64,000 nt of DNA, taken from Candidatus Omnitrophota bacterium. Its GTDB lineage: Bacteria > Omnitrophota > Gorgyraeia > Gygaellales > Profunditerraquicolaceae. Position numbers and translations under genes: made by a program. The first letter of the stretch is position 1. Every line of letters starts with the position of its first letter. Below, piece after piece: positions 12,702 through 62,024 of the stretch. The notes beneath the pieces were generated by a model that saw nothing but the letters and a program-made list of their open reading frames with translations, did no database searches and was not told the DNA's origin. The stretch covers positions 74,133-138,132 of the forward strand of contig QZKH01000002.1 in the NCBI GenBank assembly GCA_003598025.1. Reading direction: 5' to 3'.

Positions 12702-12730
12702 TTGACGCTCCTTACCCCCTGGGGTATAAT
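12702..12730 (+). promoter_or_regulatory. sigma70-like promoter for nfo
   Basis: TTGACG (12702-12707), a 17-bp spacer and TATAAT (12725-12730). The heptamer array ends 11 bp upstream of the -35 box. Confidence 0.6.
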
Positions 12731-12740
12731 GGGTGAAATT

Positions 12741-13988: not shown

Positions 13989-16406
13989 ATGGAATATGAT
14001 TTTAAGGAAATAGAGAAGAAGTGGCAGGGATATTGGGATAAGAGCGGTCTATACCGCGCTGAATATTCTCCGGGCAATAAGAAATATTATTTGCTTGAGA
14101 TGTTCCCTTATCCTTCGGGCAAGATACATATGGGCCATGTAAGGAATTATGCCATTGCCGACGTTGCCGCAAGGTTTAAGTTGATGCAGGGTTATAATGT
14201 CCTGCATCCGATGGGTTTTGACGCTTTTGGCCAGCCTGCAGAAAACGCTGCAATCAAGAACAAAACCAAGCCCGATGCCTGGACCCATAAATGCATAGAC
14301 TGGATGCGCGTTGAGCTTAAGAAGATGGGTTTTTCTTATGATTGGGCAAGGGAGGTATCTACCTGCGACAGCACTTATTATAAGTGGAACCAATGGATAT
14401 TCCTTAAAATGTTTGAGAAGGGCCTTGCTTACAAGAAAGCCTCGAATGTAAACTGGTGCCCGAACTGCGAAACCACACTTGCTAATGAAGAAGTGATAAG
14501 TGAAGAGTGCTGGAGATGCCATAGCAAAGTTGAGCAGCGTAAACTTGACCAGTGGTTTTTAAAGATCACCGGATATAAAGAACGGCTGCTTGAAGATCTG
14601 GGAAAGCTTAAAAATTGGCCGGAGCGCGTTATTGCAATGCAGTCTAACTGGATCGGCAGGAGCCAGGGCGTGGAGATTTATTTTAAAATTAAAGGCAATG
14701 ATGATATCACGATACCGGTTTTTACCACCCGTGTAGATACTATATTCGGCGCCAGCTACGTAGTTTTAGCACCGGAGCATCCTTTGGTCGAGGATATTAT
14801 AAAAGGCATAGCACATGAGCCAGAGATCAGGAAGTTTATCAATAAGGTAAAGAAAGAAAAAAAGAACATACTCTCCAAAGAAGATGTTAAAAAAGAGGGT
14901 ATTTTCAGCGGCCGTTATTGTATCAACCCGGTGAATAATGAAACTATCCCTGTTTGGATCGGTGATTATGTTTTAATGGAGTATGGCACAGGCGCGATTA
15001 TGGCAGTGCCGGCTCATGACCAGAGGGATTTTCTTTTTGCTAAAGAACATGGGTTACCTATGAGAATAGTTATAAACAGTCCACAGTCCACAGTCCACAG
15101 TCCACAGGAATTGACTGAAGCGTATGAGGGGGATGGTTTCCAGGTTAATTCTGGGCAATTTGATGGATTGGATAACCAAAAGGCAAAGTCCGAGATTGCA
15201 AAGTGGATGGAGGCAAAAGGGATAGGCAAAATCCAGACACACTGGAGGCTGCGCGATTGGCTTATATCAAGACAGCGATATTGGGGTACACCTATACCGG
15301 TTATATATTGTGAAAAATGCGGGATCGTGCCTGTCCCATATCATGACCTGCCTGTTGAATTGCCGGCTGATGCCCCTTTTACCGGTGAGGGTGGCAGCCC
15401 CTTGGCAAAAGTGAAAAAATTTGTAAATGTCAAATGCCCTAAATGCAATGGCTCTGCCAGGCGCGAAACAGATACCATGGCTACTTTTTTTGACTCGTCG
15501 TGGTATTTCCTGAGATTCTGTTCCCCTTCTTTTAATGAGGCGCCTTTTGATAAGCAGGAGGCTAGATATTGGATGCCAGTTGACCAGTATATCGGGGGAA
15601 TAGAGCACGCTATTTTACATTTACTCTATTCACGCTTTTTTACTAAATTTTTCAAAGACCTGGGGATGGTGGAATTTGACGAGCCGTTTACATGCCTGCT
15701 TACACAGGGGATGGTCCTTAAAGAAGGCGAAGTAATGTCAAAGTCAAAAGGTAATATAGTTGACCCAGATTCGATTATAAAGAAATACGGTGCAGATGCC
15801 CTGCGGCTTTTTATACTTTTTGCCGCGCCTCCGGAAACTGAACTGGAGTGGGATGACAGGGGGATTGAGGGAGCATCCAAGTTCTTAAACAGGGTATGGC
15901 GCCTGCAGGATAACCTAAGGGATGGCCCGGCAGATAAATCAGGAGGGCTGGCCACCGCAAAAATACTGCATAAAACAGTTAAGAAAGTAACTGATGATAT
16001 AAATCAGTTTAAATTTAATACCGCGATTGCCAGTTTAATGGAGCTGACAAATGTTTTATATCAGTCCGGGGCAGATAAAGAGGATTATTCTACGTTAGTT
16101 GTGTTGCTGGCCCCGATAGCCCCGCATTTTGCAGAGCAAATTTGGGAGAATTTAGGGAACAAAGAATCTGTATTTAAGGCAAAATGGCCGCAGTATAACC
16201 CGGATTATCTTTTTGATTCTGTTGTTGATATAGTAGTCCAGGTAAATGGTAAGCTGCGCTCTAAGCTCGCAGTCCCGTTTGATGTTAGAGAAGAAGAGTT
16301 AAAAGAATTAGTCTTGCGTGATCAGAAGGTACAACCCTGGATTAGCGGTAAGAATATCAGAAGTTTTATATTCGTGCCCAACAAACTTGTCAACATCGTA
16401 GTCTGA
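13989..16406 (+). CDS. leuS: leucyl-tRNA synthetase
   Basis: HMGH motif ([12 protein letters not shown]) and KMSKS motif (VMSKSKGN). 805 aa with a LeuRS-type CP1/editing insertion. Confidence 0.95.
15077..15107. repeat. 7-nt tandem repeat (CAGTCCA, 4.4 copies) inside the leuS coding sequence
   Basis: Read directly in the sequence. It encodes [10 protein letters not shown] in a variable loop of LeuRS. Confidence 0.85.
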
Positions 16407-48574: not shown

Positions 48575-49135
48575 ATGAAAGTCAGCAAAAATAAACTCAG
48601 TTACACCCGGTCCGGAAAACCAGTAGTTTTATCCGGCAAGGCTTTGTTTAAAGGTAAGCTATTAAATTTACATAAAGCCAGCGTTAATCTGCCGACAGGA
48701 TATGCGGCCGAGCTTGAGATTATAAAACATCCTGGCGCAGCCCTGGTCGTGCCGGTGTTGCCGGGAAATAAGATTGTAATGCTCAGGCAGTTCAGGCCTG
48801 TAATCGGTAAATATATCTATGAATTACCGGCAGGAACATTAGAGAAAGGCGAGAATCCTTTGTCTTGTGCCAGGCGTGAAATAGAAGAGGAAACCGGATA
48901 TCACGCGGATAAATTCAAACGGCTGGGCACTATATTTCCTGTCCCCGGGTATTCTACAGAAAAGATTGAGATATTTAAAGCAACCGGGCTTAAGAAAAGA
49001 AGATTCTCGCCTGAAAGAGATGAAGTAATCTCTGTTTTTGTGGTTACTAAATTACAGATCAGAGAATTATTAAGGAAAGGCAAACTTGTCGATGCAAAAA
49101 CTATTTGCGCGTTTTGTTTGTGCGGATGGATTTAA
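48575..49135 (+). CDS. NUDIX hydrolase (ADP-ribose pyrophosphatase-like)
   Basis: Nudix box GTLEKGENPLSCARREIEEETGY. Confidence 0.75.
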   Translation: MKVSKNKLSYTRSGKPVVLSGKALFKGKLLNLHKASVNLPTGYAAELEIIKHPGAALVVPVLPGNKIVMLRQFRPVIGKYIYELPAGTLEKGENPLSCARREIEEETGYHADKFKRLGTIFPVPGYSTEKIEIFKATGLKKRRFSPERDEVISVFVVTKLQIRELLRKGKLVDAKTICAFCLCGWI

Positions 49136-49205
49136 GTCCTGCGCTTTTTTATTGCAAAGACAAGCAAACCTGGTATATATTAATTGTAACTAACCGAAGA
49201 AAAGC

Positions 49206-49565
49206 ATGAAAAAAGAGTTGATCGTAGTAGGCGACAGGGTTTTAATATTGCCCGATGATAACCAGGATAAGACCGAGACAGGCTTGTATCTTCCTCAAGG
49301 TGTGAGAGAAAAGGAAAAAGTCCAAAGCGGCATTGTTGTCAAAACCGGTCCCGGATACCCTATGCCTGAACCCGGGGCTGTTGATATTGAGCCCTGGCAA
49401 TCTCCTAAGGTGGATAACAGGTATTTTCCACTACAAGCCAAAGAAGGAGACTACTGTATTTTTTTAAGGAGTGCCGGGATAGAGGTTGAGTATGAAGGCA
49501 AAAAGCATATAATCGTTGCTCACTCGGCAATACTGGTTTTACTTAGAAATAACGAAGTATTATAG
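49206..49565 (+). CDS. GroES/Cpn10-fold small protein with no adjacent groEL
   Basis: 119 aa. LIVVGDRVLILP...GLYLP...GIVVKTG...GD...F pattern follows the Cpn10 beta-barrel. Confidence 0.45.
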   Translation: MKKELIVVGDRVLILPDDNQDKTETGLYLPQGVREKEKVQSGIVVKTGPGYPMPEPGAVDIEPWQSPKVDNRYFPLQAKEGDYCIFLRSAGIEVEYEGKKHIIVAHSAILVLLRNNEVL

Positions 49566-49595
49566 AGATTTTTTATGCGTTTAGAGGAATAAAAA

Positions 49596-50867
49596 ATGGA
49601 TCCAAGATTAATTTCAATAACGGTTTTCATTCTAGCGTATCTATTTTTCGTATTATTACCTAACAAAAGGTCGTTGACTGCGGCTGTAGGGGCTTCTTTG
49701 CTTATTTTAACCGGAGTAATCCCTTTAAATAAGGTAATTACTTCAATAAACTGGAATGTCATGGGTATCTTTGTCGGCATGCTTTTTGTAGCAGACATAT
49801 TCATGAAAAGCAGGGTACCGGCTTTTATCGCAGAGGTTTTTGTGAATAATTCCAAGAACACGGCCTGGGCTATATTGTTTATATGTGCGCTGGCTGGTTT
49901 TATTTCCGCATTCGTAGAGAACGTTGCTACGGTCCTGATAATTGCTCCGATTGCGCTATCTTTAGCGAGAAAATTAAAAATAAGCCCTGTAAACATGATG
50001 ATTGCTATAGCTGTCTCTAGCAACCTGCAGGGCACAGCTACACTTATAGGAGATCCTCCCAGTATGTTGCTGGCCGGTTTTGCGAAGATGAACTTTATGG
50101 ACTTCATAATCTATAAAGGCAAGCCAGGTATATTTTTTGCTGTAGAATTAGGAGGCATACTCTCTTTTATAGTACTGTATATGTTCTTCAGAAAACATAA
50201 GGAGAGAGTGAAGTTAGTTTCTGTAGAAAAAATAAATTCCTGGATCCCTACAATTATGCTGGTAATTTTAATAATGGCTCTTGCAATATCTTCTTTCTGG
50301 GATACCGGGTTTTCTTATCTTGCCGGTATAATCTGTATGATATTCGGCATTCTTTCTCTTATCTGGGATAAGTTTGTTAACAAAGCCGCTCTATTTCAAT
50401 CAATAAAAAGCGTGGATTGGGATACTACAATTTTTTTAATAGGGATTTTTATTATAATCGGCAGCCTTACATTGACCGGCTGGATCGATACCATATCAAC
50501 ATCATTGTCTTCAATAGTAGGGGATAGGCTTTTCTTTGGGTATACCATTATAGTAGTTTTTTCCGTTATAATCTCCGGTTTTGTCGATAATGTTCCTTTT
50601 CTGGCTACAATGCTGCCTGTAGCTATATCTATGTCCAGTAAACTTAACATAGACCCGTCATTATTTCTCTTCGGCCTGCTTATAGGCGCTAGCTTAGGCG
50701 GAAACATTACCCCGATCGGGGCATCCGCTAATATCGTAGCATGCGGGCTTCTTAAGAAGGAAGGTTATAAAGTGACCTTCGGGGATTTCATGAAAATAGG
50801 CCTGCCTTTTACTATAGCTGCGGTTTTCGCCGGGTACCTATTCATCTGGTTTGTTTGGGGGAAGTAA
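49596..50867 (+). CDS. ArsB/NhaD-superfamily (CitMHS-like) permease, paralogous in type to the one at 38326
   Basis: Motifs GDPPSML and GGNITPIGASANIVA. Confidence 0.6.
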   Translation: MDPRLISITVFILAYLFFVLLPNKRSLTAAVGASLLILTGVIPLNKVITSINWNVMGIFVGMLFVADIFMKSRVPAFIAEVFVNNSKNTAWAILFICALAGFISAFVENVATVLIIAPIALSLARKLKISPVNMMIAIAVSSNLQGTATLIGDPPSMLLAGFAKMNFMDFIIYKGKPGIFFAVELGGILSFIVLYMFFRKHKERVKLVSVEKINSWIPTIMLVILIMALAISSFWDTGFSYLAGIICMIFGILSLIWDKFVNKAALFQSIKSVDWDTTIFLIGIFIIIGSLTLTGWIDTISTSLSSIVGDRLFFGYTIIVVFSVIISGFVDNVPFLATMLPVAISMSSKLNIDPSLFLFGLLIGASLGGNITPIGASANIVACGLLKKEGYKVTFGDFMKIGLPFTIAAVFAGYLFIWFVWGK

Positions 50868-50876
50868 AGATTTTTC

Positions 50877-50928
50877 TTGACATAGGGTAGGGGGGTATGG
50901 TATATTTGTACAAGGAAGGAGGTACCCT
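50877..50928 (+). promoter_or_regulatory. promoter (TTGACA, 18 bp, TATATT) containing a CsoR-type GC-rich pseudo-palindrome ATAGGGTAGGGGGGTATGGTAT, with the inverted copy TACCCTAT at the start codon
   Basis: Read directly in the sequence. Confidence 0.55.
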
Positions 50929-51213
50929 ATGAAACAGATCACCACTCATGAAGAACAACTCGCCTTTTTAAGGAAGATCGAAGGCCAGATACGCGGTATA
51001 CAGAAGATGATCCAGGATAAGAGGTACTGCGTAGATATAATCACTCAAATCCATTCTATCATTGGCGCGCTATACAGGGTGGAGGATGAAATATTAAGAA
51101 AACACCTTGATGGCTGCGTTGTCAGCGCTCTTAAAGGCAAATCAGATTCAGACAAACAAAAGAAAATAGAAGAGATCATGTCATTGATAACTAAATTCAG
51201 GCGGAGCCCCTGA
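50929..51213 (+). CDS. csoR: CsoR/RcnR-family (DUF156) metal-sensing repressor
   Basis: W-X-Y-Z fingerprint residues C...H...C (RYCVDIITQIHSIIGAL...LDGCV). 94 aa, all-helical. Confidence 0.75.
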   Translation: MKQITTHEEQLAFLRKIEGQIRGIQKMIQDKRYCVDIITQIHSIIGALYRVEDEILRKHLDGCVVSALKGKSDSDKQKKIEEIMSLITKFRRSP

Positions 51214-51217
51214 TATT

Positions 51218-52477
51218 ATGTTGAAGAAGTTATTGATTATAATATTGCTTAGCATATTTATTCTTAACCATCCGGTTTTTGCACAGGGGATATTGTCCCT
51301 GGGGCCGCTTATCGAAGAAGCAAGGGAGAATAACCCTGGTATTCTGGCTGCCAAAAAGCGCTGGGAGGCTGCTTTGGCCCGGGTGCCTCAGGCAAAGTCT
51401 TTACAGGACCCGACTATTGGTATAGCTTTTGAGAAGATTCCGCGCGGAACGTTGAAGTTGAACAAAGTCATGGCAGATGACAGGATGCTTTCACTGCAGC
51501 AATTCTTCCCTTTTTTCGGTAAATTAACTTTGAAAGGCAAGATTGCCATGGTTGAATCTCAGATGTTTGCTGCCGAATATAAGAATAAGGAATTAGAAAT
51601 CATAAACCTTCTCAAAAATGCATATTACGATCTATTCATGAAGCAAAAAGAAATAGAATTAAGCCGCCAGAGCCTCAGGTTATTGCAAAATATCGCCAAT
51701 GTCGCCGAGGCAGGTTATACGGTTGGAGGCATCCCTCAAGAAGAGGTGTATAAAATAAATTCTGAAATAGCCCGTCTTAGTACCAATATTAAAAATTTAG
51801 ACCAGGAAAAATCTGCCAAACAGACATTAATTAATTCCCTTTTAAATAGAGACCCTGAAATGCCATTAGGAGACCCTGATTTAAAAGAAGATGTCTTATT
51901 TGATAAGGATGTCAGGGCTTTATACCAGGCTACTCTTCTTAACCAGCCAGAGCTGGTTATCTTTTCTTATTCTATAGAGAAAAACAAATATTCTAAATCA
52001 TTAGCCAAAAGAAGTTTTTTCCCTGATTTTATGGCAAGTATTGTCCAGCGGGGGATCACTTCCGGGATGCTCGGGCCGTGGGATTTGATGCTGGCTTTTA
52101 ATGTGCCACTATGGTTTTGGACGAAACAGCGTTATGAGATTAAGGAGGCCATTGCCAATTTAGAAGAGGCAGAAGCCGCATATAAGGCAATGCAGAATAA
52201 GGCATTCAGCGAAGTAAAAGACCTGGCTGCGAAGATAGAGGTCTCCAAGAACAAAATCACATTGAATAAAACAAGCTTGATCCCGATGCTGGAAGCCTCC
52301 ATTGAATCTTCGCTGGCGGCTTTTAATTCAGGCAAAGGTGATTTTATGATGCTTTTGGATAGCCAGAGAATGCTTATTGAAACAAAAATGGACTATTATA
52401 GAGCGCTGGTTGAATATAATATGAATCTAGCGGACTTAGAAAGAACTGTAGGCATTCAGCTACAAGAGGAGAAATAA
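51218..52477 (+). CDS. outer-membrane efflux protein (TolC/CusC/CzcC family)
   Basis: Signal peptide, and two OEP repeats with conserved LS/LL...A motifs. Confidence 0.75.
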   Translation: MLKKLLIIILLSIFILNHPVFAQGILSLGPLIEEARENNPGILAAKKRWEAALARVPQAKSLQDPTIGIAFEKIPRGTLKLNKVMADDRMLSLQQFFPFFGKLTLKGKIAMVESQMFAAEYKNKELEIINLLKNAYYDLFMKQKEIELSRQSLRLLQNIANVAEAGYTVGGIPQEEVYKINSEIARLSTNIKNLDQEKSAKQTLINSLLNRDPEMPLGDPDLKEDVLFDKDVRALYQATLLNQPELVIFSYSIEKNKYSKSLAKRSFFPDFMASIVQRGITSGMLGPWDLMLAFNVPLWFWTKQRYEIKEAIANLEEAEAAYKAMQNKAFSEVKDLAAKIEVSKNKITLNKTSLIPMLEASIESSLAAFNSGKGDFMMLLDSQRMLIETKMDYYRALVEYNMNLADLERTVGIQLQEEK

Positions 52478-52478
52478 A

Positions 52479-53663
52479 ATGAATAGAAAGATGCTAGTTA
52501 TTATTTTATCGTTGATTTTTGTTACTGCATACCAGATAGGTTCCCCGGCTTATTCTTTTGCCCAGCACCAAGGCCATACCGACGGAACTTCTTCTAAAAA
52601 AGGCAAGGGTCAGGAACCAGCGCCTATGAAAATATATCGCTGCCCGATGCATCCTCAAGTTGTATCTGATAAGCCTGGTAAATGCCCTATCTGCGGTATG
52701 GTTTTATCTGAGGTTATTGAAAGCGATACAAAAGCCGTAGAAACATCCGGAGAAGGCCCGGTCATTAAAATAAAGGAAAGCCAGGCTGAGCTTATTGGTG
52801 TTGTGACAGAACCTATTGTATCGGTTGGTTTGATGCGCATGATACCTGCGGTTGCCAAAATCGCTTTTGACCCGGAACTCTATCAGGCCCAGGCAGAATT
52901 TATACAGGCCAATAAGACTAAAGATGCCGTAAGCCTGAGTAGCTCTTCCGAAATCAGAGATAGGCTAGAAGCCCTGGTGCTTGCCGCTACTTCCAAGCTT
53001 AAGCTCATGGGTTTATCAGATTCGCAAATTGAAGAACTAAGAAATGAAGAAGAGCCCGATAGTGTTCTTTTGATGTCAAAAGGCCAGAGCTCTTATACTT
53101 GGGCATACTTGACTATTTATGAGCATGATTTAGGTTCAGTAAAACAAGGGGATCATGTTGTATTGAAAGCAATTGCTTATCCGGCAGAAGAGTTTAATGG
53201 CAAGATAGTCGCAATTGATCCTGTCTTAGATACGAATACGCGAAGCGTTCGTGCCCGTGTGCAGGTGGATAATCCGGAAGCAAAACTGAAACCCAATATG
53301 TATGCCGATGCTTTTATCCATGTTGACTTAGGCCAGAGGCTTGCTGTTCCAAGGGAAGCGGTATTGGATACAGGCGTAAGAAAAATTGTGTATGTTGAAT
53401 TAGGCAAAGGGCAATTCAGGCCTCAAGAGGTACAGACAGAGTCAGAAGCAATTGCATTAATTGACGGTAAAGAACGTAAATTTTATCCGGTGTTGTCCGG
53501 GCTTAATGAGAATGATATTGTGGTGACAACCGGAAATTTCTTGATTGACTCGCAAAGCCAGCTTACCGGAGGAATGTCTGCCTTGTGGGGAGCATCAACA
53601 GAGATAAAGCAGGATCAGGTTGAGGGTGTTGCAGGAGAGGTAAAAACGCAACATCGCCATTGA
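52479..53663 (+). CDS. RND efflux membrane-fusion (periplasmic adaptor) protein, CusB/CzcB-like, with an N-terminal metal-binding CxxC region
   Basis: CPMHPQV...CPICGM, and biotinyl/lipoyl-like plus beta-barrel MFP blocks. Confidence 0.75.
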   Translation: MNRKMLVIILSLIFVTAYQIGSPAYSFAQHQGHTDGTSSKKGKGQEPAPMKIYRCPMHPQVVSDKPGKCPICGMVLSEVIESDTKAVETSGEGPVIKIKESQAELIGVVTEPIVSVGLMRMIPAVAKIAFDPELYQAQAEFIQANKTKDAVSLSSSSEIRDRLEALVLAATSKLKLMGLSDSQIEELRNEEEPDSVLLMSKGQSSYTWAYLTIYEHDLGSVKQGDHVVLKAIAYPAEEFNGKIVAIDPVLDTNTRSVRARVQVDNPEAKLKPNMYADAFIHVDLGQRLAVPREAVLDTGVRKIVYVELGKGQFRPQEVQTESEAIALIDGKERKFYPVLSGLNENDIVVTTGNFLIDSQSQLTGGMSALWGASTEIKQDQVEGVAGEVKTQHRH

Positions 53664-53673
53664 AAGGCAAGAT

Positions 53674-56600
53674 ATGATAAATAAAATAATAAATTATTGT
53701 TTAAAGACCCCGTTTGTGGTTTTTGTTGCCTATTCGGCAGTGTTTTTTTGGGGTTTATGGGCAATTACTAATATACCGGTTGATGCGATACCGGATATCG
53801 GCGAGAAACAGGTAATAATATATACCGAATGGCCCGGCCGTTCTGCAAAAGATGTAGAAGATCAGGTTACGTATCCGCTTTCCGTATCCCTACGCGGTAT
53901 CCCCGGAGTAAAGACCATACGCGCATCAAGCGCTTTTGGCTTTTCTGAAGTATACCTTATTTTTAATGACAATATAGATTACTATTGGGCCCGCTCCCGA
54001 GTTTTAGAGAAATTAAATCTTGCCTCCAGCCGCCTGCCAATGGGCGTTATGCCTGTTTTAGGTCCTGATGCCACAGGTTTGGGGCAGATTTTCTGGTATA
54101 CCGTTGAGGGTAAAGGCTACGGTATTGACCAGTTGAGGAGCATTCAGGATTGGTTTATCCGCTATCAGCTTAATTCAGTTCAGGGTGTATCTGAAGTTGC
54201 TTCTATCGGAGGGTTCGTTAAGCAGTACCAGATCGATATCGACCCTAACAAGATGCTGGCTTACAACATTCATTTAGGCCAGATAATGGAAGCGGTTAAA
54301 AAATCGAATATAGATGTAGGAGCTAAGGTCGTTGAAAATAATGCTATGGAATATATTATCCGCGGTTTAGGGTTTATAAAATCCCTGGAGGACATCGAGA
54401 ACATTGCGGTAGGCGAAATAAATGGCGTGCCTATTTATATCAAGAATATTGCCAATGTTCAGCTTGGGCCTGAATTCCGAAGAGGAGCGCTGGATAAAGA
54501 TGGCCAAGAGGCAGTCGGTGGCGTGGTCATTATGCGTTACGGGGAAAACGCAATGCAGGTTATCCATCGTGTAAAAGAAGCCATAAAGGAACTGCAGAAA
54601 GGTTTACCCGAAGGAGTAAAAATAGTTCCCTTTTACGACCGGACAGACCTGATCCATCGCACTATAGGGACTCTTCGCGAAGCCCTCATCTTGGAAATTA
54701 TTATTACCATGGCAGTAGTCGTGCCGTTCCTGGCTCATATCTGGGCAGGCGTAATCATTAGCATTACTTTGCCGTTCTCGGTTTTGATAGCATTTATTGC
54801 GATGTACTATTTAAAAGTAGATTCTAATATTACATCTTTATCCGGTATTGCGATTGCGATAGGAACACTGGTAGATATGGGTATTGTTATGACCGAAAAT
54901 ATTTACCGGCGTTTAATCGAATATAGCGATGATATTAAGAAAGGGGTAAAGTCCAGGCTGGATGTAGTATTTAAGGCATCTTCAGAGGTAGGTTCTGCGG
55001 TTATCACGGCAATACTTACTACGGTAGTATCATTCCTTGCTGTATTTGCACTCGAAGCCCAGGAAGGAAAACTCTTTAAACCACTTGCATATACTAAGAC
55101 TTTTACCCTTTTGGCCTCTGTTACAGTTGCACTTACCTTGACTCCGGTCCTTTGCATGTATCTTCTAAAAGGAAGATTGCGGGCCCCGGAGGAAAACATA
55201 TTGGTGAAGATACTACAGAGGAACTATGAGAAAGTCTTGCGTTGGTGTTTGAATCACAGGGTTACTTTCTTACTCATACCGGCAGTTTTACTTATAACCA
55301 GCATACCTTTTATATTGCCAAAAGATATTACTTCTTTGGCTGTTTTCCTGCTTATTGTTGTAGCGTTACTGGTATTTATTCTGCCTAAGAAGACAAAATC
55401 AGTAATCGCCTCTGTTTTAGTCGTGGTTATAAGCCTGGGCTGGTTCTGGTTTTCACCTCGCATAGGGCGTGAGTTCATGCCTCCATTTGATGAGGGTTCG
55501 ATCCTGTTCATGCCGGTAATGCATCCTTCAGTATCCTTGACCGAAGCAATCCGCGTAATCCAGATACAGGACAAGATAATAAAATCATTCCCGGAGGTAG
55601 AATTGGTAGTAGGCAAGGTCGGCCGGGCAGAATCTGCGACTGACCCTGCTCCGGTTGAAATGTTTGAGACCATAATTACTCTAAAGCCGAAAAAAGATTG
55701 GCGTAAGGGTATGACAAAGGAAAAACTTATCCGCCAGATGGATGCTGCCTTACAAATCCCCGGGGTATCGAATATCTGGACACAGCCTATTGTTAACCGT
55801 ATTGATATGTTAGCTACGGGTATCAGGACCTCTGTAGGTGTAAAGGTTTTTGGGCCTGACCTCAAAAAAATTGAGGAGATTGCAACAGAGATAGAGAAAG
55901 TCCTCAGGGCTGTACCTGGAGCCGTAGATTTATATTCAGAAAAGATTGTAGGTAAGCCCTATATAGAGTTTAAAATCAAAAGAGAGCAATTAGCCCGTTA
56001 TGGCATATCCATACGCGAAGTTCAGGATGTTATAGAGATGGCCATAGGCGGTGAAAATCTCACTACTACTGTTGAAGGTAGGGAGCGTTACCCTGTTCGC
56101 GTACGCTATGCCAGGGAGCTGAGAGATAATATAGATGCCTTAAGAAGGGTCCTGGTATCAACAAAAGATGGTGCTCAAATCCCGATCAGCCAGCTGGTTG
56201 ATATATATTTTGTTACCGGTCCGGCAATGATTAATTCGGAGAACGGGCTTTTGCGCGCCTATGTCTTGATGAATGTCCGCGGCAAAGATATGGTTACATT
56301 TGTCGAAGATGCGTCTAAAATCGTATCTGAAAAAGTAAAATTGCCTGCAGGGTATTTTATTCAATGGTCAGGCCAATTTGAAAATCAAGTCCGGGCCAAG
56401 AAAAAGATAGCCGTGCTTTTACCGGTCAGCCTGTTAATAAACTTTATGCTGATTTATATGAATTTCCGTTCCATAATAAAGTCGGTATTTATTTTTACGG
56501 CTGTTCCTGTGACATTGGCCGGTGGGATATGGCTTTTGGCATTTTCAGGATTTAATTTTTCAGTTGCTGTATGGGTAGGTTTTATCGCACTATTCGGGAT

Positions 56601-56940
56601 CGCTGTTGACGATGGAGTATTGATTACAACGTATCTTGACGACGTATTTGGAGAGAGGAAAGATAAGATAAAAAACAGGCAGGACGTTGTTGAGGCGACT
56701 GTCCATGCAGGTTTAGGTAGGATCAGGCCGGCGTTTCTCACAACTATGACTACTATTGTTGCGCTTCTACCGATTATGTTCTTAAAAGGAACAGGCGCGG
56801 AAGTTATGCAGCCCATGGCTATACCTTCCATAGGCGGGATGGTTTTTGAGATGGTTACCTGGTTTATAGTTCCGGTTTTATATTCATGGCGCGAAGAAAG
56901 AAAGATAGCGAAAGCAAAACCTTTACTATCTAAACCTTAA
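53674..56940 (+). CDS. heavy-metal efflux RND pump (CusA/CzcA, HME family)
   Basis: 1088 aa with 12 TM and two large periplasmic loops. AcrB/CzcA family conserved TM4 region. Confidence 0.9.
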   Translation: MINKIINYCLKTPFVVFVAYSAVFFWGLWAITNIPVDAIPDIGEKQVIIYTEWPGRSAKDVEDQVTYPLSVSLRGIPGVKTIRASSAFGFSEVYLIFNDNIDYYWARSRVLEKLNLASSRLPMGVMPVLGPDATGLGQIFWYTVEGKGYGIDQLRSIQDWFIRYQLNSVQGVSEVASIGGFVKQYQIDIDPNKMLAYNIHLGQIMEAVKKSNIDVGAKVVENNAMEYIIRGLGFIKSLEDIENIAVGEINGVPIYIKNIANVQLGPEFRRGALDKDGQEAVGGVVIMRYGENAMQVIHRVKEAIKELQKGLPEGVKIVPFYDRTDLIHRTIGTLREALILEIIITMAVVVPFLAHIWAGVIISITLPFSVLIAFIAMYYLKVDSNITSLSGIAIAIGTLVDMGIVMTENIYRRLIEYSDDIKKGVKSRLDVVFKASSEVGSAVITAILTTVVSFLAVFALEAQEGKLFKPLAYTKTFTLLASVTVALTLTPVLCMYLLKGRLRAPEENILVKILQRNYEKVLRWCLNHRVTFLLIPAVLLITSIPFILPKDITSLAVFLLIVVALLVFILPKKTKSVIASVLVVVISLGWFWFSPRIGREFMPPFDEGSILFMPVMHPSVSLTEAIRVIQIQDKIIKSFPEVELVVGKVGRAESATDPAPVEMFETIITLKPKKDWRKGMTKEKLIRQMDAALQIPGVSNIWTQPIVNRIDMLATGIRTSVGVKVFGPDLKKIEEIATEIEKVLRAVPGAVDLYSEKIVGKPYIEFKIKREQLARYGISIREVQDVIEMAIGGENLTTTVEGRERYPVRVRYARELRDNIDALRRVLVSTKDGAQIPISQLVDIYFVTGPAMINSENGLLRAYVLMNVRGKDMVTFVEDASKIVSEKVKLPAGYFIQWSGQFENQVRAKKKIAVLLPVSLLINFMLIYMNFRSIIKSVFIFTAVPVTLAGGIWLLAFSGFNFSVAVWVGFIALFGIAVDDGVLITTYLDDVFGERKDKIKNRQDVVEATVHAGLGRIRPAFLTTMTTIVALLPIMFLKGTGAEVMQPMAIPSIGGMVFEMVTWFIVPVLYSWREERKIAKAKPLLSKP

Positions 56941-56952
56941 AAAGGAGGTAAG

Positions 56953-57324
56953 ATGTATATGGCAAGGATTTATTTTCTAAGTTTAGCTGTAGTTTTTGCA
57001 TCGGTTTCTTTGGTATTTGCACAAATGCACGAGCACGCAGATATGCATAAGAATATGATGGAGCAAGCAGAACAAAGTAAGGCCGAGAATGTGGGAAATA
57101 AGATTTGCCCTGTAAGCGGGGAGAAGATAATTGAAGAATTCAAAGCAACATATGAATACAAGGGTAAGATTTACAATTTTTGTTGCGCTTCTTGCGTTGA
57201 AGAATTCAAAAAAGACCCGGAAAAATATATTAAAAAGATAGAGGAAGAGGAAAAAGCAGCTCTCAAAGAAGAGAACAAAGTTACAAAGCCGGATTCAGAC
57301 ACCCATAAGGGACACCAACACTAA
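56953..57324 (+). CDS. YHS/TRASH-domain copper-binding protein with signal peptide
   Basis: CPVSGEKI...KGKIYNFCCASC, a YHS-like motif, plus His/Met-rich termini. Confidence 0.65.
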   Translation: MYMARIYFLSLAVVFASVSLVFAQMHEHADMHKNMMEQAEQSKAENVGNKICPVSGEKIIEEFKATYEYKGKIYNFCCASCVEEFKKDPEKYIKKIEEEEKAALKEENKVTKPDSDTHKGHQH

Positions 57325-57336
57325 AAACACAGTTAT

Positions 57337-58056
57337 ATGGCTAAGAGAATCAGTTTGTTAAATAAATCCATACTTCTAAGCATTATTATGCTATTAGTTG
57401 TTACTGTCATTTCTTTTGCTAAAGATCAGTCTGGGCTTAAAAAGGAGATCTATTCAAAATTAAAGTGTTGTAATTGCGCTGTATCTTTTGAAAAGTGCAC
57501 TTGCGCTGAGGCTAATGAAATAAAACCATATGCAGACAAGCTTATTGCGGATGGATTTAGGCCAGAAGAGATTTTTTATAGGTTAGCTAAACGTTTCTCG
57601 TTGAAGATAATTACTGACCCTCAAATAAAACAACAGGTTGAAAAAAGGCTGATTAAAGAAATGAAAGGTATGTCCCCCAAGATAGCTGTCGAAAATGGGA
57701 CAGTTAATTTAGGGGCTATCAGTAAAAAGAAAAATAAACTTTATAAAAGCAGCTACAAGCTGGTCAATGAAGGCAATGCTGCTTTAAGAATCTCAAACAT
57801 AAAGACATCATGTCCTTGCGTAAGTGTTGCGCTTAAATCAAGAGATTCAGTCACTCCCTATTTTGGAGTGGGGGGTTCAGCAGTAGACTTAGGTGTAACC
57901 ATTGAGCCGGGAAGCTCTGCAGATTTGATGATAATATTTGATTTGACACATCCGAGCGTAAGCAGGGGCAAGCTCATAAGATATATTTTTATAAACAGTA
58001 ACGACCCTTTAACTCCTCAGTTTGAATTGGAATTAACCGCAGATATAATCAAATAG
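57337..58056 (+). CDS. DUF1573-domain protein with an N-terminal Cys-rich segment
   Basis: C-terminal SCPCVS motif in an Ig-like fold typical of DUF1573. N-terminal KCCNCAVSFEKCTCAEA. Confidence 0.45.
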   Translation: MAKRISLLNKSILLSIIMLLVVTVISFAKDQSGLKKEIYSKLKCCNCAVSFEKCTCAEANEIKPYADKLIADGFRPEEIFYRLAKRFSLKIITDPQIKQQVEKRLIKEMKGMSPKIAVENGTVNLGAISKKKNKLYKSSYKLVNEGNAALRISNIKTSCPCVSVALKSRDSVTPYFGVGGSAVDLGVTIEPGSSADLMIIFDLTHPSVSRGKLIRYIFINSNDPLTPQFELELTADIIK

Positions 58057-58122
58057 TATATTTGTTAAAGCATAGCCTATTTAAAAACAAAATAGGACCG
58101 TAAAAAAGATAAATTTTTTTCT

Positions 58123-58148
58123 TGACAAATGATACCATTATGGTATCA
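58123..58148 (+). promoter_or_regulatory. -35 TTGACA followed by a perfect 9-1-9 palindrome TGATACCATTATGGTATCA, a candidate Rrf2/NsrR operator
   Basis: Read directly in the sequence. Confidence 0.55.
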
Positions 58149-58169
58149 TTTAACGAGAAAGGAGGTAAT

Positions 58170-58247
58170 ATGGATATAACTATCAGGTATATGCTTCGGC
58201 CGGTAGCTCACTGCAAAGAAGGTTGTAGTATTTTGTCCTGGGTATGA
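58170..58247 (+). CDS. candidate 25-aa leader/upstream ORF (MDITIRYMLRPVAHCKEGCSILSWV)
   Basis: GGAGGT lies 4 nt upstream of the ATG, immediately after the palindrome and 95 bp before the Rrf2 gene. Confidence 0.2.
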   Translation: MDITIRYMLRPVAHCKEGCSILSWV

Positions 58248-58341
58248 CGTTAAATCGCCCGGCTCGCATTTGCCTGCCGGATGACACTCGGGATCAATCT
58301 GAGTGCTGCCCATTTAACCCCTGATAAATAAAAAGGAAAAT

Positions 58342-58737
58342 ATGAAATTATTAACCAGAGATACGGATTATGCGGTAAGGGCGCTTTGTTTTATAGCAAG
58401 AATGGATAATAAAGTTGTTCCTGTTCCGGAATTAGTCAGGGAGCTTGATGTCCCCAGGCCATTTTTGAGGAAGATCCTGCAGATACTGCACAAAAAGGGT
58501 ATTTTGTATTCTTTTAAAGGTAAAGGAGGCGGATTCTCTTTGGCAAAACCTCCAGATAAGATATTAATTACCGATTTAATAAAGATATTTCAGAATTCTC
58601 TTAAATTAAATGAGTGCATACTGAAAAAAAGAATATGCCCTAATAAGGGCGCCTGTTCTCTAAGGCGTAAGATCGATGGTATTGAAAAGATTGTTGCTAA
58701 GGAGCTAAGTTCTATAACTGTAAAGTCATTAATCTAG
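58342..58737 (+). CDS. Rrf2-family transcriptional regulator (NsrR/IscR-like, three Cys)
   Basis: Rrf2 HTH (DYAVRALCFIAR...) and C-terminal Cys residues (CILKKRICPNKGAC). Confidence 0.8.
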   Translation: MKLLTRDTDYAVRALCFIARMDNKVVPVPELVRELDVPRPFLRKILQILHKKGILYSFKGKGGGFSLAKPPDKILITDLIKIFQNSLKLNECILKKRICPNKGACSLRRKIDGIEKIVAKELSSITVKSLI

Positions 58738-58752
58738 AAAAGGAGTTAAGAA

Positions 58753-60432
58753 ATGAGTAATAAAATGTTTTGCTATCAATGTGAGGAGACTGTAAACGGC
58801 AAAGGATGCACAATCGAAGGCATCTGCGGGAAAACCCATGTAGTAGCTAATTTACAGGACCTTCTTATTTATCTTGCTAAAGGTATATCTGTATATGCAA
58901 ATAAGGCAAGGGAATTAGGCGTAAACAATGCAGAGGTAGACTTATTTGTAATTGAATCGCTGTTTTCGACTGTCACAAACGTTAATTTTGACCAAGATAG
59001 AATGATTGAATTGATAAAAAAAGCGTTCTATTACAGGGATGATATAAAGAATATGTTTTTCGGGGCATATAAAGCTAAGAACGCAAACAAAGGCTTTGAA
59101 GGGAAGCTCCCGGATGCTTGTATCTGGCATTGGGATGGCAGCGTAGACAGCCTTTACACAAAGGCAATAAGCGTAAGTATATTATCTGAGGCCAATGAAG
59201 ATATACGTTCATTAAGAGAATTATTAGTTTACGGGCTTAAAGGGATAGCTGCATATGCAGACCATGCATATATATTAGGTAAAGAAGATAACGATATACT
59301 GGCTTTTGTCGAAGAGGGGCTTGCTGCTACGCTTGATAATACCTTAGGGGCCCAGGAGCTAGTCGGCTTAGTTATGAAAGCCGGTGAATATGCAGTTAAA
59401 ACAATGGCACTTTTAGATAACGCTAATACGTCTGCCTATGGTAATCCTGAAATAACCCAGGTATTTACCGGCACTAAAGAAGGCCCGGCGATACTTGTTA
59501 GCGGACATGATCTGTTGGATTTGGAAGAGATACTTAAACAGACGCAAGGAACCGGTATAAATGTTTATACTCATGGTGAGATGTTGCCTGCAAATGCATA
59601 TCCGAAATTAAAGAAGTATAGCAATCTTGTAGGTAATTACGGTACTTCCTGGTATAACCAGCAAAAAGAATTCGAGGCATTTAACGGGGCTATAGTAATG
59701 ACTACCAATTGCCTCCAGAGGCCAAAAGATTCTTACAGAGACAGGATGTTTACCACAGGCTTAGTCGCATGGCCGCAAGTCCAGCATATTAAGGACAGGG
59801 TAGGCAGCGCTCAAAAAGATTTTTCTGCTGTAATTGAGAAGGCGCTTGCCCTGGGTGGCCTTGAAGAAACCCCAGGTAAATATATTACAATCGGTTTTGC
59901 CCACGTATCTGCTATCAAAGTCGCAGCAAAGATAGTAGATGCTGTTAAATCAGGGAGTATAAAGAGATTTGTGGTAATGGCTGGTTGTGACGGAAGGCAC
60001 AAGGAGAGGAATTATTTCAGTGAGGTAGCAAGGCAACTTCCGGAAGATGCGGTGATATTGACCGCAGGATGCGCCAAATACAGATATAATATGCTGGATC
60101 TCGGAGATATAGGGGGAATACCCAGAGTTATAGACGCCGGCCAGTGCAATGATTCCTATTCTCTGGTTGTGATCGCCCAGGAGCTGGCAAAGGTATTCAA
60201 AGTTAAAGATATAAATGAACTGCCGGTTTCGTTTGATATAGCATGGTATGAACAAAAGGCAGTATGCGTGCTTTTAGCTTTGTTATATCTTGGAGTAAAA
60301 AATATAAGGCTGGGACCGAACCTGCCAGCTTTCATTTCTCCTGCTGTTTTAAAGGTGCTGGTTGAGAAATTCGATATTAAGCCCATCAGTACTCCGGAAA
60401 AAGATATAGAAGCTATGCTGGCGGCTAAATAA
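58753..60432 (+). CDS. hcp: hybrid-cluster protein (hydroxylamine reductase)
   Basis: N-terminal MFCYQCEETVNGKGCT...GICGK cubane-cluster motif and conserved hybrid-cluster ligands. Confidence 0.9.
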   Translation: MSNKMFCYQCEETVNGKGCTIEGICGKTHVVANLQDLLIYLAKGISVYANKARELGVNNAEVDLFVIESLFSTVTNVNFDQDRMIELIKKAFYYRDDIKNMFFGAYKAKNANKGFEGKLPDACIWHWDGSVDSLYTKAISVSILSEANEDIRSLRELLVYGLKGIAAYADHAYILGKEDNDILAFVEEGLAATLDNTLGAQELVGLVMKAGEYAVKTMALLDNANTSAYGNPEITQVFTGTKEGPAILVSGHDLLDLEEILKQTQGTGINVYTHGEMLPANAYPKLKKYSNLVGNYGTSWYNQQKEFEAFNGAIVMTTNCLQRPKDSYRDRMFTTGLVAWPQVQHIKDRVGSAQKDFSAVIEKALALGGLEETPGKYITIGFAHVSAIKVAAKIVDAVKSGSIKRFVVMAGCDGRHKERNYFSEVARQLPEDAVILTAGCAKYRYNMLDLGDIGGIPRVIDAGQCNDSYSLVVIAQELAKVFKVKDINELPVSFDIAWYEQKAVCVLLALLYLGVKNIRLGPNLPAFISPAVLKVLVEKFDIKPISTPEKDIEAMLAAK

Positions 60433-60447
60433 AATACGGGGGAAACT

Positions 60448-61284
60448 ATGCAGAAAAGGAAAATAATAAAAATTGATGAAAATAAATGTACTGGGTGCGG
60501 CCTGTGCATACCGAATTGCCCTGAGGGCGCTATACAGATAATTGATGGTAAGGCGCGCCTCATAAGCGATTTGTTTTGTGACGGTTTAGGCGCATGTATC
60601 GGCCATTGCCCCGAGGGAGCTATAACTATAGAGGAGAGGGAAGCCCAGGCCTACGACGAGGATAAAGTGATGGAAAATATCGTAAAGCAAGGCCCGAATG
60701 TAATAAAAGCCCACCTCCATCATTTAAAAGCTCATGGCGAGGTAAATTATTATAACCAGGCTTTGGCTTTCTTGAAGGAACACAACATCAATATCCCTGT
60801 AGATAAGAAATGCGGCCCCGCTGGCCACGGGCCATCTGGTTGTCCTGGCTCAAGGATGATGGATTTGCGCAAAAAGAAAAAAACAGAACACGATGTAAGC
60901 TCTGCGGCAAAGCAGGAGTCTGAACTTGGCCAGTGGCCGGTGCAGCTTATGCTTGTGCCCAGCTATGCGCCTTATTTGAATAATTGCGATCTTCTGATAG
61001 CTGCCGATTGCGTTCCTTTTGCTTATGCTGATTTTCATCGCGACCTTTTGAAAGGCAAAACTTTGCTCGTGGGCTGCCCCAAACTTGACGATGTTTCAAT
61101 ATATCAGAATAAACTGGAACAGGTTTTTGCCAATAACGATATAAAATCAGTTACTTATGCCCATATGGAAGTGCCTTGCTGTTTTGGTTTGGTTAATATA
61201 ATACAATCGGCGATAGAGAAATCAGGTAAAGCAATACCTTTTAAAGAAGCTGTCATAAGTATAAGCGGAGAGAGGCTAAGATGA
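60448..61284 (+). CDS. 2x[4Fe-4S] ferredoxin-domain protein with a C-terminal Cys-containing domain of unclear function
   Basis: CTGCGLCIPNCP and CDGLGACIGHCP. The C-terminal half has further cysteines, but I cannot place it in a family. Confidence 0.55.
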   Translation: MQKRKIIKIDENKCTGCGLCIPNCPEGAIQIIDGKARLISDLFCDGLGACIGHCPEGAITIEEREAQAYDEDKVMENIVKQGPNVIKAHLHHLKAHGEVNYYNQALAFLKEHNINIPVDKKCGPAGHGPSGCPGSRMMDLRKKKKTEHDVSSAAKQESELGQWPVQLMLVPSYAPYLNNCDLLIAADCVPFAYADFHRDLLKGKTLLVGCPKLDDVSIYQNKLEQVFANNDIKSVTYAHMEVPCCFGLVNIIQSAIEKSGKAIPFKEAVISISGERLR

Positions 61285-62024
61285 TGCTTGGGTGTCCTGG
61301 TTCAGGGCCGTTCAAGCAGCCAAAGCCCGAAGACCTAAAGTGTTCCAGGTGTAATGCTGAAATTGAGATCTGGAGCGATGAAGCCAAGGCTAAATGCCCG
61401 TCTTGCGGAAATATTGTATTACGCAAATTTTCCGGAAACACATGCCTTGACTGGTGTAAAGAAGCCCGTTTCTGCGTCGGAGATAAAGTTTATAAAAATT
61501 ATATTCAGGGCAAGGCAGCATCCTTAAAACAGGGGATAGTCGAAGAGATGGAGCGTTATTTCGGAGATGATACAAAGAGGATAAGGCACGCAAGGAATGT
61601 TATGGGATTTGCTGAAATGATCCTCAAGGAACATAAAGCAGATTGGCATATCGTTATACCCGCTAGCCTATTGCATGATATAGGGATTAAGCGGGCTCAG
61701 GAGAAATACGGCTCAACCTCGGGGCATTACCAGGAGATAGAAGGGCCTGCAATCGCAGAGGCCATACTTAATAAATTGGGGGTCAAAAAAAGCGATATTG
61801 ATGAAATTTGCCAGATTATTGCACATCATCATTCCCCGGGCATAGTTAATACTGAGAATTTTAAAGTCTTATATGATGCTGATTGGCTGGTAAATTTAAA
61901 AGACGAGTATGATATTAAAGACAGGCAAAAACTGATCCGGATTATCGATAGGGTATTTCTGACGGAAACAGGCAAAAGGTTAGCCAACGATACTTACGTT
62001 AACTTAAAAAGGAGTAATCTATGA
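61281..62024 (+). CDS. HD-domain phosphohydrolase with an N-terminal zinc-ribbon
   Basis: CSRC...CPSCG ribbon. HD motifs H...HD...H (RHARNV, LLHDIG, AHHH). Confidence 0.65.

Follow-up and report, generated by a model that had tools for sequence, protein, structure and literature searches.

Copper-sensing CsoR repressors have been studied almost only together with CopA and CopZ and on palindromic operators of type 2. Can such a sensor control a pump that spans the whole envelope, and what DNA would it read? The question is raised by a csoR locus in a 64,000-nt stretch of DNA from a Candidatus Omnitrophota bacterium (contig QZKH01000002.1, positions 74,133 to 138,132; hereafter the window, with coordinates counted from its first base), which departs from the studied systems in two ways. 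Here, as in dozens of Omnitrophota and in anammox Planctomycetota relatives, a cytoplasmic Cu(I) sensor would directly control an envelope-spanning CusCBA pump, and a copper-type sensor is paired with an operator otherwise known from DmeR regulators of nickel and cobalt. We conclude that the locus is probably a native, autoregulated, copper/silver-inducible csoR-cusC-cusB-cusA-YHS operon, possibly with a DUF1573 gene at its end, from whose promoter apo-CsoR would be released by Cu(I).

A near-invariant 22-bp box fills the spacer of the csoR promoter

A sequence-only reading of the window had described a promoter with TTGACA and TATATT hexamers and a 22-mer in the spacer between them. The 22-mer is there exactly; it fills the spacer and reaches into both hexamers, covering the final base of the -35 element and the first three bases of the -10 element. 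The promoter, the leader and the first gene comprise:

50877-50882, + strand: -35 hexamer TTGACA (promoter scan, 11/12 with TG)
50882-50903, strand not assigned: predicted CsoR operator, the 22-mer ATAGGGTAGGGGGGTATGGTAT, that is ATAGGGTA-GGGGGG-TATGGTAT
50883-50900: promoter spacer of 18 nt, TAGGGTAGGGGGGTATGG (read from the sequence)
50898-50906, + strand: extended -10 element TGgTATATT (promoter scan), with TG at 50898-50899 and TATATT at 50901-50906
50914-50922, + strand: Shine-Dalgarno region GGAAGGAGG (read from the sequence)
50929-51213, + strand: csoR, encoding a 94-aa CsoR/RcnR-family repressor (PF02583, 87.8 bits)

The box consists of a G6 tract (50890-50895) between two AT-rich arms, ATAGGGTA (50882-50889) and TATGGTAT (50896-50903). 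It is single-copy in the window even when three mismatches are allowed, with 0 copies expected from 100 shuffles. In a scan of 49000-62000 the csoR promoter was among the two best promoter-like sites (both 11/12, both with TG); the total of such sites in that region was not above that in shuffles, so the promoter match alone is weak proof. Counted from the inferred start of transcription, the leader would be short, about 16 nt. No Rfam family matched the csoR leader at E values up to 1, and the idea of an RNA element there was dropped.

Comparison with related genomes provides stronger evidence. A scan with the window's CsoR protein as query, over one genome per species, returned 80 loci, and the 54 species genomes in which CsoR is at least 59% identical to that of the window formed the conservation set. 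Across this set the box carries a mean information of 1.80 bits per position, versus 0.28 and 0.34 in its flanks, and 29 genomes of the set have the exact 22-mer. CTTGACATAGGGTAGGGGGGTATGGTATACT stands out as an island of identity within the otherwise unalignable upstream DNA of csoR loci. Each position of the -35 hexamer is kept in 52-53 of the genomes (mean 1.78 bits), the -10 element of the relatives reads TATACT or TATATT, and the whole 31-bp promoter is conserved as a single block; AGGAG-like motifs occur at the place of the Shine-Dalgarno region. The exact 17-mer core also lies upstream of csoR in Brocadiia (Planctomycetota), where CsoR is only 49-54% identical, indicating that the DNA of the box is better conserved than the adjoining gene. 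Because it is near-invariant in related genomes whose flanks cannot be aligned, the box is far beyond chance and, to judge from this pattern, under strong selection.

The box also travels with a particular kind of gene. A search of metagenome contigs for the exact 22-mer gave at least 120 matches; the following counts refer to the 120 listed. A csoR homologue (36 to 77% protein identity) lies downstream of 102 of these, within 150 nt in 97 cases, and six matches have no room downstream. Among the remaining 12, four are directly upstream of copZ/copA, and another four extend over the start codon of a gene for an RcnR/DmeR-like regulator, with a gene for a DmeF-type exporter behind it.

In these last four loci (L113, L179, L181 and L192), the exact 22-mer overlaps the ATG of genes for regulators of the H-C-H-H type, and the exporters behind them are of the CDF family. 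Such an overlap suggests a leaderless or near-leaderless transcript, and it indicates that the box is common to nickel/cobalt systems as well. Two further loci carry the element twice: L040 has one box-like promoter before csoR and one after it (TTGACATGGCATAGGGGGGTATTGTATAAA), and L064 has two boxes 29 nt apart, an arrangement reminiscent of the tandem operators known in the CsoR/RcnR family.

Conservation of a promoter spacer would be unexpected without a binder, and this one keeps company with CsoR/RcnR-family genes or with their metal-efflux targets. The spacer could instead be a promoter or structural element that co-travels with csoR, for example DNA in A-form or folded into a weak G-quadruplex, with a tuning effect on RNA polymerase. 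The 22 nt of the G-rich strand include 14 G and lack C, which would allow a two-tetrad quadruplex; the extended -10 element falls on the right arm; and the conserved block includes the entire promoter. However, spacers normally vary freely, and CsoR/RcnR-family genes or copper targets stand at no fewer than 110 of the 114 listed matches with enough downstream sequence. Published operators of the family have the same architecture and position (PMC6044271, PMC12724321, PMC3902906), and distant relatives replace the box with a classical CsoR palindrome rather than with random sequence. We therefore consider a structural role very improbable. A CsoR operator embedded in the promoter of a copper/silver RND efflux operon, as the sequence-only reading had proposed, remains the prediction on which this csoR-tied footprint, the Cu(I) ligand residues of the repressor and the methionine triad of the pump all agree.

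The repressor and the pump have copper signatures

Residues 8-89 of the repressor match PF02583 (DUF156, Trns_repr_metal) at 87.8 bits, versus a cutoff of 22.8. A look-up of contigs that encode exactly this protein gave no record, although a homologue search found an identical protein from a Candidatus Omnitrophota metagenome-assembled genome; the window encodes no second CsoR paralogue. The best match in NCBIfam is the copper sensor RicR (70 bits, below the 175-bit cutoff), and the best relatives of solved structure are the Cu(I)-CsoRs of Geobacillus thermodenitrificans (4M1P) and Streptomyces lividans (4ADZ). In the alignment, both have their Cu(I) ligands at the positions of C34, H59 and C63. 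The persulfide sensor CstR (7MQ1) has Asn at the position of H59, and the W position of RcnR and InrS, 32 residues before the Cys, is Lys2 here and not His. The protein thus has the x-C-H-C fingerprint without a His at W (roles of the ligand sets according to PMC11672702, PMC8643695). It also has the second-shell Tyr and helix 3 Glu that couple Cu binding to DNA release (PMC11672702): Y33 precedes C34, and E82 (KIEEIM) is the aligned counterpart of the Glu of LRELM in 4M1P.

Six closely packed genes of the + strand, separated by gaps of about 1 to 12 nt, begin with csoR. Domain searches agree with the gene order given in the sequence-only reading; behind csoR follow:

51218-52477, + strand: outer-membrane factor, CusC/TolC-like (PF02321 OEP in two stretches, 135.6 bits)
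52479-53663, + strand: periplasmic adaptor, CusB-like, with an N-terminal heavy-metal-binding domain, HMBD (PF16576 HlyD_D23, PF19335 HMBD)
53674-56940, + strand: CusA-type heavy-metal RND pump of 1088 aa (TIGR00914, 1059 bits versus a cutoff of 701)
56953-57324, + strand: secreted YHS/TRASH-domain protein, His/Met-rich (PF04945 YHS, 40.6 bits)
57337-58056, + strand: Cys-rich DUF1573 protein (PF07610)

The pump scores 875 bits against CusA of E. coli and 558 bits against the zinc pump ZneA. Its methionines M613, M663 and M712 align with the M573/M623/M672 triad of CusA, D405 of CusA is conserved, and the motif in transmembrane helix 4, AIAIGTLVDMGIVMTEN, is of the monovalent type. The triad and the motif A-[IV]-G..D..EN are present in all 29 full-length csoR-linked pumps (41-87% identical to that of the window), none of which has the divalent, CzcA-type DFG..DGA..VEN motif. 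Copper/silver is thus the best-supported substrate. The adaptor reaches 81 bits against the NCBIfam CusB subfamily, whose cutoff is 390.

The YHS protein has a signal-peptide-like N-terminus followed by a MHEHADMHKNMM stretch. Many related operons have its gene as well, placed behind the pump gene in some and between the genes for CsoR and the outer-membrane factor in others. The protein is a candidate for a periplasmic copper chaperone standing in for CusF; neither a CusF-like gene nor a two-component pair is found in or beside the operon. The DUF1573 gene, which begins 12 nt past the YHS gene, may close the operon; the strong promoter-like site that comes next lies at 58122. Membership of the gene is weak: homologues are operon-linked in only a few related loci (L004, L006, L059 and L125).

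The locus resembles the CusCFBA/CusRS system of E. coli in several respects: its CusA-type pump has the methionine site and the AIG..D..EN motif, the pump gene shares an operon with those for an adaptor and an outer-membrane factor, and a small metal-binding protein of the periplasm is encoded alongside. It differs in its predicted regulator, a cytoplasmic one-component CsoR where E. coli has the periplasm-sensing two-component system CusRS, in the HMBD of its adaptor, and in the YHS protein that occupies the place of CusF.

Compared with the Cu(I)-CsoR systems that control copZA (Bacillus subtilis, 4M1P, 4ADZ; cluster 1 of a sequence similarity network, PMC8643695), the repressor belongs to the same PF02583 fold family, shares the x-C-H-C ligands and the Tyr/Glu second shell, and would likewise be autoregulated through a promoter-overlapping operator with a G tract and a GTA element. 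The target differs, being a CusCBA-type RND pump and not the CopA ATPase with CopZ; the copA/copZ neighbourhood of the Cu-CsoR subgroup is absent from the locus. That the window lacks copA altogether, as noted from the sequence alone, was borne out, because no open reading frame (ORF) of at least 300 aa has the DKTGT motif of P-type ATPases. An 805-aa ORF at 13989, tried as a CopA candidate, was identified as leucyl-tRNA synthetase.

The repressor might bind the box and sense something other than copper, either nickel or cobalt, like DmeR, RcnR and InrS, or persulfide, like CstR, with the pump serving that stress. Such a role would be in keeping with the identical 22-mer before FrmR/RcnR-like regulators (H3-C35-H60-H64) and DmeF cobalt/nickel exporters in the four loci described above, with the modest RicR score, and with the conserved His7 of the window's CsoR, given that the nickel sensor InrS combines C-H-C with one extra His. 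Yet the W position is Lys2, H59 is present where CstR lacks it, and the second-shell Tyr and Glu of Cu-CsoRs are in place. Moreover, the Cu(I)/Ag(I) methionine triad is found in every linked pump and the CzcA-type motif in none of them, and in the Brocadiia relatives a CPC-type CopA is encoded directly behind csoR. Taken together, these features make a non-copper effector improbable, and copper remains the predicted signal.

The box as a predicted DmeR-like operator of type 1

Operators of the family fall into two types (definitions and Cu-driven release according to PMC3902906 and PMC11672702). Type 1 has a single G/C tract of 3-8 bp and AT-rich inverted arms 6-9 bp apart, and type 2 is a 5'-TAC-N9-GTA-3' pseudo-palindrome with two G/C tracts; known CsoR operators are of type 2 (PMC3902906). 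The sequence-only reading had assigned the box to the TACCC...GGGGTA type. This holds for the right half, GGGGTAT, and fails for the left half, ATAGGGTAG, which has TAGGG: the box reads TAG-N9-GTA, with GGG in place of CCC and no C on the top strand, and is of type 1, not type 2. Indeed, the G6 tract is placed between TA...TA, the arms ATAGGGTA and TATGGTAT are complementary at 5/8 positions, and the box overlaps the promoter of the repressor-encoding operon and is conserved along with the repressor. A fully or nearly symmetric form, TTACCATA-G6-TATGGTAT, occurs in L058 and L021, the left arm of L058 reading ATACCATA.

A close known counterpart is the rhizobial DmeR operator (PMC6044271). It matches the box at 15 of 16 arm positions, has a 6-bp tract and occupies the same place between -35 and -10, and the exact 22-mer of the window precedes dmeR-dmeF in metagenome loci. 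The central tract is C6 in the DmeR operator and G6 in the window, that is, on the opposite strand, and DmeR combines an H-C-H-H (nickel/cobalt) site with a CDF exporter, whereas the window combines C-H-C (copper) with an RND pump. The box is therefore, as far as its sequence predicts, a DmeR-like type 1 operator joined to a copper-type sensor. As known CsoR operators are of type 2 (PMC3902906), this pairing lies outside the characterised range; with an asymmetric TAG-N9-GTA and all G on one strand, the box differs from the operators of the copZA systems.

The operators of NreA-nreXY in Mesorhizobium (PMC12724321) and of RcnR-rcnA in E. coli (TACT-G6-N-AGTA; PMC3902906) are also of type 1, with a single G tract and inverted AT-rich arms, and that of NreA likewise fills the -35/-10 spacer of an operon starting with the repressor gene. 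They differ in their arms, TATCC..GGATA and TACT..AGTA, and both regulators sense nickel/cobalt. The Thermus thermophilus TTHA1953 consensus TACNNTACNNNNGTANNGTA (PMC10318464) has the same 20-bp frame, into which the right half of the box fits (GTATGGTA against GTANNGTA); the left half, TAGGGTAG, has G replacing both C's. TTHA1953 controls sulfur oxidation, and its site has no G tract.

Distant csoR promoters carry canonical ATACCCC-N-GGGGTAT palindromes in the same promoter position, namely ATACCCCCCAGGGGTAT in L056, ATACCCCCATGGGGTAT in L071 and ATACCCCCTAGGGGTAT in L078. We looked for covariation between the type of box and the RLXR motif that contacts DNA and found none that was clean: CsoRs of Omnitrophota have F/A/Y/S-L-[KR]-[KR], the same box is used in Brocadiia by proteins with RL[KR]R, and YLKK and ALKR are seen together with palindromic boxes. 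No protein residue tracking the box type was found among the homologues compared. The B. subtilis copZA operator, probably TACCCTACGGGGGTATGGTA, would be separated from the box by C-to-G changes alone; this comparison is not used as evidence.

Could the box be only half of a site? The left arm of the box, as CATAGGGTA (50881-50889), returns after a gap of 33 nt as a perfect 9-nt inverted repeat, TACCCTATG (50923-50931), which extends over the csoR ATG, and two tetramers might thereby bridge the promoter and the start codon. Occupation of type 2 sites by two CsoR tetramers, and an influence of external GTA/TAC motifs on binding, are on record (PMC3902906). However, the second arm is missing from the upstream regions of the other loci inspected, and by estimate chance alone would produce about 0.1 repeats of this kind in 221 nt. 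A second contact is accordingly a long shot, and the single 22-bp box is retained as the predicted operator.

One other palindrome drew attention. At 12703-12732, in front of a gene for an nfo-like AP endonuclease, a response regulator gene and leuS, a promoter-like TTGACG-17-TATAAT has in its spacer (12712-12727) the true palindrome TTACCCC-CT-GGGGTAA. This palindrome was considered as a type 2 CsoR site marking a second regulon member or a hidden copA, and was rejected: its dyad is N8, not N9, and its neighbours are not copper-related. Loose matches to the pattern number 15, versus 10.8 expected, which is not above chance.

A model for copper-dependent derepression

In the model that we consider likely, one sigma-70-type promoter would read the whole operon. 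At low copper, an apo-CsoR tetramer would occupy the 22-bp box, reading the G6 tract mostly by shape and the arms ATAGGGTA and TATGGTAT by sequence. As the box spans the spacer and the edges of both hexamers, bound CsoR would exclude RNA polymerase; operators inside the -35/-10 spacer have precedents in NreA (PMC12724321) and DmeR (PMC6044271). Rising cytoplasmic Cu(I) would fill the subunit-bridging C34/H59'/C63' site, the Y33/E82 second shell would pass the change on, and the repressor would leave the DNA. The tripartite CusCBA-type pump would then export Cu(I)/Ag(I) via the three-methionine site of its RND subunit, probably fed by the secreted YHS protein as by CusF in E. coli, and the additional CsoR made from the operon would provide negative feedback.

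Some observations weigh against this reading. The right arm overlaps the extended -10 element, and part of its conservation may therefore be a promoter constraint. The box breaks the TAC-N9-GTA dyad that S. lividans CsoR requires; there, binding was lost once exactly these bases had been exchanged at the two ends (PMC3902906). The first Arg of the RLXR motif, a further difference from the CsoRs of copZA systems, is Phe in the window's protein (FLRK). His7 (in TTHEEQ; 50947-50949), which lies outside the RcnR/InrS W position, is kept in nearly all homologues down to 44% identity (L001-L080). Finally, an identical box also precedes RcnR/DmeR-like nickel/cobalt regulators with DmeF exporters, which makes the box uninformative on metal specificity.

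A prevailing arrangement in Omnitrophota

The sequence-only reading had called a CsoR that drives an RND operon a less common wiring. For studied organisms this agrees with the literature: our full-text searches found no description of a CsoR-controlled RND pump, and a paper on Pseudomonas putida CsoR credits control of cusA to CopR. It does not apply to Omnitrophota, in which csoR-cusCBA is the prevailing arrangement: csoR is directly followed by the genes for the outer-membrane factor, the adaptor and the pump, sometimes with the YHS gene first, in 44 of the 53 loci with enough downstream sequence. In Brocadiia the order is the box, a variable first gene, csoR, a CPC-type copA and the pump genes. 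The term island, also used in that reading, does not suit the locus, since the GC content of the operon (0.39-0.43) and its skew match the surrounding DNA; no foreign mark was seen, and the operon appears resident.

The related operons look mosaic (L001-L059, L081-L200). CsoR (about 70-77% identical to that of the window) and the outer-membrane factor (about 60-70%) stay similar, and the adaptor and pump fall into separate lineages, with pumps about 85-91%, about 50% or about 43-47% identical. The adaptor-pump pair thus seems to have been exchanged inside a conserved frame.

No new mechanism is implied by the locus, whose parts are ordinary: CsoR, a type 1 operator and CusCBA are known parts in an unstudied combination that is common in uncultivated lineages. 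In Omnitrophota the box is paired with a Cu-type CsoR and CusCBA, in Brocadiia with CsoR, CopA and CusCBA; its other partners are copZA and, for nickel/cobalt, DmeR together with DmeF. We propose tentatively, as a possibility more doubtful than the copper operon itself, that one near-invariant 22-bp type 1 operator, ATAGGGTA-G6-TATGGTAT, serves regulators of differing sensing chemistry and effectors in several phyla. If so, the DNA-reading face of CsoR/RcnR proteins would be an ancient fixed module, repeatedly re-paired with new sensor sites and pumps, and the G/C tract could flip strands with no change in the arms, which would imply recognition of the tract by shape and of the arms by sequence. 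The clade would hold the first copper CsoRs known on a polar, non-palindromic operator and would offer a natural test case for a D2-symmetric tetramer reading an asymmetric site. The 22-mer could serve as a regulon marker that finds copper and nickel efflux operons in metagenomes of uncultivated phyla, and the promoter-operator-repressor module of about 340 bp as a compact test of how DNA recognition and metal sensing have recombined.

Flanking genes

Downstream, the promoter-like site at 58122, TTGACA-16-TATCAT with TG, is the second strong one in the region. Within 58122-61284 it is followed by genes for an Rrf2-family regulator, a hybrid-cluster protein of the Prismane family and a protein with a 4Fe-4S ferredoxin domain, together probably an operon for nitrosative or redox stress. 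Homologues of Rrf2 and Hcp also lie near csoR in L042.

Upstream, a gene for a CitMHS/ArsB-family permease (49596-50867) ends 10 nt before the -35 hexamer. Permease homologues (29-70% identical) are encoded inside or just after the csoR-pump operon in L035, L039, L042, L060, L145, L165 and L196, in L042 directly behind csoR, which suggests that the permease is tied to the metal operon.

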